DNA of 64,000 nucleotides, taken from assembly GCF_056712565.1 (NCBI RefSeq), contig NZ_CM160072.1. One strand, 5' to 3'. The notes beneath the pieces were generated by a model, which ran no database searches, was not told the origin of the DNA, and worked only from the letters and a program-made list of their open reading frames with translations. Numbering within the stretch: position 1 is the stretch's first letter; the number at the start of each line of letters is the position of its first letter. This document shows positions 33,296-34,815 of the stretch, piece by piece. A program made the translations under genes and the position numbers.

Positions 33296-33383
33296 AACAA
33301 TTCCTTAAAATTAAATATAGCAAGCTACATGTTTTGTTATATGAATAAAAATCCCCTCTCCGGTAAGAGAAGAGATTGAGGAT

Positions 33384-33695
33384 TTACAGACTTCTGGACG
33401 GTTGCGCAGCTCTTACAACATGTGGTTGATCTTCTGCGGCGTCTTCCAGCGCACTTAAATCACGGTCTTTCACTTCTGGCATTTTCAGCGCAGAGATTAA
33501 ACCAATCACAGAATATGCCATGATCATAATGGCGATCGGATACCAGGATTCCGTCATGGTGCAGAAAATCCCCGCCAGGATAGGACCAAAACCGGAAGCG
33601 ATAAGACCACCAATTTCTTTAGAAATAGCCATTCGGGTAAAGCGGTTAGTCCATAAATTCAAGCGCAGTGCCCAACCATCCCGATACTGCTGCTT
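33384..33695 (-). pseudogene. ydfJ: 3' fragment of MFS transporter gene ydfJ (about 104 codons); the 5' three-quarters of the gene is absent
   Basis: Open frame encoding a C-terminal MFS segment ends at a stop at 33696-33698; only ~100 bp separate it from the rspB stop. Confidence 0.6.
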
Positions 33696-33795
33696 TCACC
33701 AAATCCTTAGTACTTCTTTCGTGTTTTTCTATTGTCATAATGGTTATCTCTAAAAAAGAGGTAAGATGCGTGCTACTTACTCGCCGTTATTGGTA

Positions 33796-34815
33796 TTATT
33801 CAGAAAAAGTGAGTAAGACTTTGCAGCAATGTTTTTGATCCTGTTCAAATAAACTAATGGCATCCGCAACATGCTGGAAATCAAATGTATGGGTAATTAG
33901 TTTTTCTGGTTTAATTAACCCTTTACTTAACCAGTCGATAACGACCGGGAATTTATTTGCATTTAAGCGTGAAGAGAAAATAGAGAGTTCTTTTCCGGTA
34001 ATTCCTTGCTGAATCACTTCAGACGGTTCACTGGAGAAGCCCATCAATACAATACGTGCCGCTGGAGAAGCCAGCGTTACGGCCTCTTTCAAGATTGAAG
34101 GATGACAAGCGGCATCGATAATTAAAGTCGGCTTGATGCCTTTTTCAGCGAAACTCTCGCCAAGCGGTGTCTGGCTGTTATTAATCGCCCAGTCTGCCCC
34201 GCTCTCTTTCGCTTTTTCCAGTCGTTCATCAATGCGATCGGCAACAATCACATTTTTAACGTTATAGACGCCTTTTAATACCTGAACGATCGTCAGGCCG
34301 ATTGGGCCGGCACCGTAAACCAGAACGGTATCATTTTCAGTCGGTTGACCATGACCGGTAACGTTAGCCGCAATGGTAAAAGGTTCGATCATCACCGCAT
34401 ATTGATCGGCCACAGCTTCAGGAATTTTCCACGCATTTTTTGCCGGAACCACGGCATATTCACTGAAACCACCGTCAGCGTGCACACCTAATACAGCAAG
34501 TGTCGTACAAACGTTCGGCTTACCTATAGAGCACGGATAGCAATGCCCACAGCTGACCACCGGATCGACAGCAACGCGTTCACCGACTCTGGCGCTTTCC
34601 ACGCCGTCACCCACTGCATCAATGACGCCAAAGAATTCATGACCAATGACGCGCGGATATTTCGCAAAAGGATTATGCCCACGGTAAATATGGCTATCTG
34701 AACCACAAATTCCGGCAAGTTTCACTTTTACTCGTACTTCACCCGCTGACGGGGTGGGTATTTCACGTTCGATAATCGACAGTTGATTCGGTTTTTCAAT
34801 TAAAATGCTTTTCAT
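33796..34815 (-). CDS. rspB: Starvation-sensing protein RspB (zinc-type alcohol dehydrogenase), 339 aa
   Basis: MKSILIEKPNQLSIIEREIP... Confidence 0.9.
   Translation of the reverse strand: MKSILIEKPNQLSIIEREIPTPSAGEVRVKVKLAGICGSDSHIYRGHNPFAKYPRVIGHEFFGVIDAVGDGVESARVGERVAVDPVVSCGHCYPCSIGKPNVCTTLAVLGVHADGGFSEYAVVPAKNAWKIPEAVADQYAVMIEPFTIAANVTGHGQPTENDTVLVYGAGPIGLTIVQVLKGVYNVKNVIVADRIDERLEKAKESGADWAINNSQTPLGESFAEKGIKPTLIIDAACHPSILKEAVTLASPAARIVLMGFSSEPSEVIQQGITGKELSIFSSRLNANKFPVVIDWLSKGLIKPEKLITHTFDFQHVADAISLFEQDQKHCCKVLLTFSE

Follow-up and report, generated by a model that had tools for sequence, protein, structure and literature searches.

A 1,013-bp internal deletion in Escherichia coli ydfJ with one endpoint inside a prophage attachment core

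INTRODUCTION

The sugar-acid transporter gene ydfJ is split by a Qin-type prophage in many strains of Escherichia coli. In the window, that is, the whole 64,000-nucleotide stretch of contig NZ_CM160072.1 (assembly GCF_056712565.1) analysed here, neither a prophage nor a complete ydfJ is found between ydfI and rspB. This raises the question of whether a prophage left the site imprecisely and took part of the gene with it or whether the gene was damaged while the site was empty. The references used for the comparison are K-12, which has Qin inserted, the phylogroup B2 lysogen ATCC 25922, and the intact B2 genes of E2348/69 and GF130.

RESULTS

The ydfI-rspB interval

Transcription of the locus runs on the minus strand in the order rspA, rspB, broken ydfJ, ydfI. 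The features that flank the ydfJ remnants are as follows.

31835 to 33295, minus strand: ydfI (mannitol dehydrogenase family, 486 aa), intact, the downstream neighbor of ydfJ, assigned from the open reading frame (ORF) and the RefSeq annotation of the identical ATCC 11775 locus, where its counterpart occupies 1636 to 3096 (L001, offset +30199)
33350 to 33377, minus strand: terminator-like hairpin with a T-run, a 12-pair stem followed by TTTATTCATA; a pattern match only, from a consensus scan
33739 to 33795, minus strand: normal rspB-ydfJ intergenic spacer of 57 bp, with spacing and sequence as in intact strains
33796 to 34815, minus strand: rspB (Zn-dependent oxidoreductase), intact, the upstream neighbor of ydfJ
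34827 to 36041, minus strand: rspA, from the ORF and annotation

The gap between ydfI and rspB measures exactly 500 bp in the ORF list and annotation, and neither places a phage gene or ORF within it, as a preliminary description of the locus had indicated (about 500 bp, no phage genes). Positions 33200 to 33900 are 100% identical to the E. coli type strain ATCC 11775 (= DSM 30083).

By pattern match, the hairpin begins 7 nt past the ydfJ stop codon. Its location between this codon and the ydfI start suggests that ydfI might not be simply cotranscribed with rspAB-ydfJ. The other terminator-like calls in a scan of positions 33100 to 34000 are overlapping calls of the same hairpin and a weak 5-pair stem within the ydfJ remnant (33517 to 33533). 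No promoter was found in a scan of the same region, and an Rfam scan of positions 31400 to 36400 returns no RNA family. In CFT073, the rspAB-ydfJ-ydfI sugar-acid cluster has reportedly been linked to L-gulonate/D-mannonate catabolism, in 2014 work attributed to Wichelecki and colleagues.

Two remnants of ydfJ

Intact ydfJ, as found in E2348/69 and GF130, consists of 1,368 bp and encodes 455 aa. Every base of positions 33200 to 33900 aligns to the chromosomal ydfI-ydfJ-rspB region of intact strains, in two abutting blocks (33200 to 33647 and 33648 to 33900). Against either of two independent intact references, E2348/69 and GF130, the segment missing from ydfJ is exactly 1,013 bp, nt 92 to 1104 of the gene. 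The interval thus contains the following parts.

33384 to 33647, minus strand: ydfJ 3' remnant, gene nt 1105 to 1368, 264 nt, 87 codons plus stop (NRFTRMAISKEIGG...SRSL and stop)
33647 to 33648: deletion junction, ...AAAGCGGTT/AGTCCATAAATTC..., the slash marking the joint; flush, with 0 bp of microhomology and no filler, mapped exactly against E2348/69 and GF130
33648 to 33738, minus strand: ydfJ 5' remnant, gene nt 1 to 91, with the start ATG at 33736 to 33738; translation MTIEKHERSTKDLVKAAVSGWLGTALEFMD
33646 to 33738, minus strand: predicted ORF of 30 codons that ends at the junction-made TAA, the counterpart of K-12 ynfP (36 aa)

The 3' remnant aligns at 99.8% to the ydfJ genes of E2348/69 and ATCC 25922, and positions 33648 to 33900 align contiguously at 99.6% to the ydfJ-5'/rspB segment of E2348/69. 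The deletion shifts the reading frame (1013 mod 3 = 2), and codon 30 is followed by a TAA that spans the joint. All 30 residues of the predicted product (MTIEKHERSTKDLVKAAVSGWLGTALEFMD followed by stop) are those of K-12 YnfP (b4534). This ORF is left without annotation in both ATCC 11775 and UTI89.

The NCBIfam model TIGR00883 represents the metabolite/H+ symporters of the MHS family of MFS transporters and has a curated cutoff of 443.45 bits. The reconstructed intact YdfJ scores 462.9 bits over profile positions 1 to 400; the 87-aa remnant scores 33.9 bits, below the cutoff, and covers only positions 352 to 400, and the 30-aa 5' piece has no match to this model. The locus is predicted to encode no functional YdfJ, as it contains neither a full-length match above the cutoff nor a single frame of about 455 codons.

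These alignments modify the preliminary description in several respects. The 104-codon frame that it had assigned to the YdfJ C terminus (33384 to 33695) is indeed open on the minus strand, but only positions 33384 to 33647 are the ydfJ 3' end; its upper 16 codons (33648 to 33695) are ydfJ 5' DNA read in the wrong frame. Contrary to the statement that the rest of ydfJ is gone, the start codon and 30 codons survive, and the loss is internal (nt 92 to 1104). The approximately 100 bp listed as unassigned (33696 to 33795) turn out to be the 5' end of ydfJ (33696 to 33738) and the native 57-bp spacer (33739 to 33795), and the search of this segment proposed there for att-like or IS-end sequences yields nothing else. 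Its view of the locus as a deletion scar and not an untouched empty site holds, given that an untouched site has an intact 455-codon ydfJ (2,007 of the 5,426 complete genomes). Likewise, ydfJ orthologues are 455 codons long rather than about 104, positions 33384 to 33647 are ydfJ, and the breakpoint mapping that it called for, against intact ydfJ and the K-12 junctions, places the joint at 33647/33648, inside the att core.

The joint

The longer context of the joint is ...GGTAAAGCGGTT/AGTCCATAAATTCAAGC...; the intact gene continues from the left side as TTTACAGCC and leads into the right side with ...ATATAACTGGA. Comparison with the intact gene shows that the two breakpoints have no base in common. 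Repeats of at least 6 bp, direct or inverted, are absent within 30 bp of either breakpoint, and the longest direct match within this distance (±30 bp) is 5 bp long and out of register. Alignment of positions 33200 to 33900 reveals no IS end or copy, phage base, or filler, and the repeat scan returns only short repeats at the chance level. There is no phage-derived DNA between the two ydfJ parts, so the interval represents neither a prophage nor a prophage remnant. The junction sequence points to homology-independent joining. As judged from the alignment, the locus is an ordinary internal-deletion pseudogene, probably specific to one lineage, that carries no phage debris.

State of the attachment site

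The core common to both K-12 Qin junctions and both ATCC 25922 prophage junctions consists of 11 bp, GAA(A/G)TCCATAA. In prophages of the O145/O157 type, identity extends to 19 bp, CTGGAAGTCCATAAATTCA (query positions 187 to 205), in agreement with the 18 to 19 bp reported for the att site at ydfJ (PMC8112680). The window retains the following part of it.

33648 to 33661: residual att core; AGTCCATAA represents 9 of the 11 bp of the K-12/ATCC 25922 core, and AGTCCATAAATTCA represents 14 of the 19 bp of CTGGAAGTCCATAAATTCA

The rspB-side breakpoint, CTGGA/AGTCCATAAATTCA, falls within both versions of the core, 2 bp from the edge of the 11-bp one and 5 bp from that of the 19-bp one. The ydfI-side arm of attB is replaced by ydfJ nt 1105 onwards. 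As aligned, the site is not an intact unoccupied attB with a complete core and both native arms. Integration of ydfJ-targeting phages is probably impaired by the absence of the ydfI-side arm and of 2 to 5 core bases.

Core position 4 (window position 33651) is a natural synonymous polymorphism of unoccupied sites and is linked to a second polymorphic site at 33678. The haplotype with G and the 5' arm CCCAACC is found in the window, E2348/69, and GF130, the latter two being unoccupied, and that with A and CCCAGCC is found in PSJ-23, Ecol_656, AVS0282, and K-12. All four int-side junctions sampled (K-12, ATCC 25922, O145 RM12367-C1, and ECONIH1) read CTCTTGAAATCCATAA, with a phage-derived A. In ATCC 25922, this A adjoins the native CCCAACC arm, and the native G is found at the ydfI-side junction, which means that in this B2 lysogen the entire prophage lies between the G and the 5' arm. 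The window junction, AG-TCCATAA-ATTCAAG...CCCAACC, displays the unoccupied haplotype. The native G at this junction suggests a cut in a site that was most likely empty, and not a one-step loss of a prophage. Five lysogen junctions underlie the G/A comparison, and the retained base may also have come from a G-carrying phage or heteroduplex.

The polymorphism also suggests, from ATCC 25922 as the sole informative lysogen, that strand exchange might occur to the right of core position 4, with the deletion endpoint located 2 bp to the left of that position. The K-12 junctions, both with A, were considered for locating the exchange but give no information on it, as A also occurs naturally in attB. 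Typing this polymorphism across many lysogens could map the strand-exchange region.

Distribution and annotation

An identical junction (100% over 301 bp) is found in 123 of the 5,426 complete E. coli genomes. Among the matches listed (60 of 123), every one has a name or serotype characteristic of the ST95 complex. The carriers include UTI89, S88, APEC O1, IHE3034, NU14, UM146, PMV-1, "ST95-32," and avian pathogenic (APEC) strains of O1/O2:K1:H7. Strains of O1/O2/O18:K1 have been assigned to the ST95 complex (PMC4232414). The remnant is free of insertions in all 123 carriers, on a coverage criterion that would not have counted a carrier with an insertion.

An intact attB/ydfJ is found in 2,007 of the 5,426 complete genomes. 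The two ydfJ halves lie far apart, as expected of sites occupied by a prophage, in approximately 2,800 genomes (an estimate from place counts), and only one half is present in an estimated 590 or so, which comprise the ST95 allele and genomes of the O157:H7 type. The segment consisting of the ydfJ 5' and rspB 3' ends is wholly absent from approximately 480 of the 5,426. The sampled genomes that have only the ydfI-side half of attB belong to O157:H7. In one of these, SS TX 754-1 (L007, L010, and L011), the prophage cluster at ydfJ runs into the ompW prophage, an arrangement consistent with the ompW-ydfJ inversions described previously (PMC8112680). In strains ES3 and EC2257 (hits H13 and H26), IS1A or IS200C is inserted within the 3' part of ydfJ, indicating that the gene has been inactivated repeatedly and by different routes.

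The allele is already known as a pseudogene through automated annotation: PGAP lists the 3' piece as an incomplete "MHS family MFS transporter YdfJ" pseudogene, "missing N-terminus." A search of a literature library found no paper linking ydfJ with ST95 or UTI89 and none discussing the deletion allele.

DISCUSSION

Origin of the deletion

The favored reading, to which a probability of roughly 0.8 can be attached, is that one internal out-of-frame deletion of 1,013 bp inactivated ydfJ, the gene for a metabolite/H+ symporter of the MHS family of MFS transporters, in an ancestor of the ST95-complex lineage, which includes this ATCC 11775-type window. The attB of that chromosome would have been unoccupied at the time, either because it had never been occupied or because it had been precisely healed. 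The deletion itself would be the product of illegitimate, homology-independent end joining. What it would have left behind is a transporter gene that no longer functions, a YnfP-like leader ORF of 30 codons, and an attB damaged by the absence of the ydfI-side arm. The break may have been started by an integrase, for example, in an abortive integration.

This last possibility can be extended into a specific scheme, in which an integrase cleaved the core of the empty attB during an abortive integration or reintegration and the break was then joined illegitimately about 1 kb inside ydfJ. Such an origin would refine the favored reading and does not exclude it. It is possible, if doubtful. A random two-ended deletion is expected to end in the core in only about 2 to 3% of cases (2x12/1369 to 2x20/1369); this makes an integrase link worth considering, and a purely phage-independent origin needs a coincidence. 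A topoisomerase-like strand transfer, of the kind known from tyrosine recombinases and type IB topoisomerases, would give just such a flush, homology-free joint. Furthermore, ydfJ is a heavily used integration hotspot, with attB intact in only 2,007 of the 5,426 genomes (PMC8112680, PMC6379469). However, a scan of the intact gene on both strands with 11-, 19-, and 25-mers shows no secondary att site at the left breakpoint (L005 1678/1679); the best ydfJ matches to the 19-mer reach at most 13/19 and are located elsewhere. The strand exchange placed by ATCC 25922 to the right of position 4 also means that the endpoint, 2 bp to its left, may not be the cleavage site. Nor do the spread samples, which are not an exhaustive survey, contain a second independent deletion allele ending in the core, which would show N(20)+AGTCCATAAATTCAAGCG at its junction or the mirror arrangement on the ydfI side. 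Apart from the ST95 allele, these samples include only the O157-type genomes, in which the other half is missing, and AST205, where the loss is IS mediated.

The preliminary description had offered two origins, imprecise prophage loss or an independent deletion, and the former now appears the less likely one, with the native G and CCCAACC both retained. In this scenario, a lysogenic ancestor of the ST95 complex would have lost its prophage and about 1 kb of adjoining ydfJ in one step that ended at the int-side junction. The locus is usually occupied, the B2 strain ATCC 25922 has a complete Qin-like prophage there (45 kb, with both int and xis), and one breakpoint does fall at the att core. Yet an int-side endpoint should leave AA-TCCATAA, as in 4/4 sampled junctions, and the window has AG-TCCATAA; zero phage bases remain; and the left breakpoint has no secondary att-like site that could have served an Int-mediated aberrant excision. 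One-step loss is therefore decidedly unlikely. A product of Int acting at a secondary site was rejected on similar grounds, as the partner breakpoint has no core-like sequence and the phage-side A is absent (the window has G). Kilobase deletions in E. coli most commonly arise by recombination or slippage between short direct repeats or by IS-mediated adjacent deletion, and an IS1-associated loss of ydfJ is known in strain AST205. With zero microhomology, no direct repeat of at least 6 bp near the breakpoints, and no IS end or copy in positions 33200 to 33900, these routes are ruled out for the window; the junction sequence effectively refutes them and leaves them very improbable. An assembly artefact or a naturally short ydfJ orthologue has virtually no chance of being the explanation: 123 complete genomes, each assembled independently, share this junction, and intact orthologues have 455 codons, which refutes both.

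Implications

Rather than phage debris, the locus represents a pseudogene, probably specific to one lineage, whose 5' half is overlooked in public annotation. The junction GCGGTT/AGTCCATAA could serve as a simple PCR or in silico marker for the group of UTI89, S88, APEC O1, and ATCC 11775. From the gene content we infer that this lineage has irreversibly lost the YdfJ transporter and kept rspA, rspB, and ydfI. The absence of prophages from this site in all 123 carriers may reflect the loss of one arm of a major hotspot for prophage integration. A bolder proposal, that an abortive integrase event at attB left this deletion as its footprint and that the loss of one arm has made the ST95 complex refractory to ydfJ-integrating lambdoid phages, is unlikely. 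If true, it would represent a natural "attachment-site suicide" that shapes the prophage repertoire of a pandemic lineage, and the excluded phages would belong to a class known in other lineages to carry effector genes and, occasionally, Stx genes. Current understanding is not overturned by this allele, and the location of a breakpoint within the att core is its only mildly intriguing point.

Comparison with known systems

Aberrant lambda-type excision and Int-mediated deletion at secondary sites resemble the event in the window in that flanking host DNA is lost and one end lies in an att core. Their hallmarks are lacking here: there is no att-like partner, no phage allele in the core, and no phage DNA.

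Strain AST205 (L008, NZ_AP043614.1, positions 4292 to 5083) displays an independent loss of ydfJ beside rspB. There, the junction contains IS copies, and neither the spacer nor any of the 5' end remains, whereas the joint in the window is clean. In AST205, IS1A abuts the 3' end of rspB and is followed by IS3 and by phage tail genes in truncated form, and the 400-bp attB probe still matches only over its last 83 bases, at the rspB end.

The pseudogenes annotated by PGAP in the ST95 complex (UTI89_RS08560 and EAS44_RS12870) represent the same allele, with identical coordinates and sequence. Their annotation covers only the 264-bp 3' piece and misses the 91-bp 5' piece and the breakpoint in the att core.

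The closest parallel is the ydfJ/ynfP pair of K-12. The gene and the att core are the same, and in both cases the first 30 codons survive beside rspB (as the 36-aa YnfP in K-12) and no full-length transporter is made from its own promoter (PMC6379469). K-12, however, keeps 1,275 bp of the 3' part, with the 20.5-kb Qin prophage between the two halves, whereas the window has no prophage and has lost 1,013 bp of the gene itself. The lesion in K-12 is in principle reversible by excision; the deletion in the window is irreversible.
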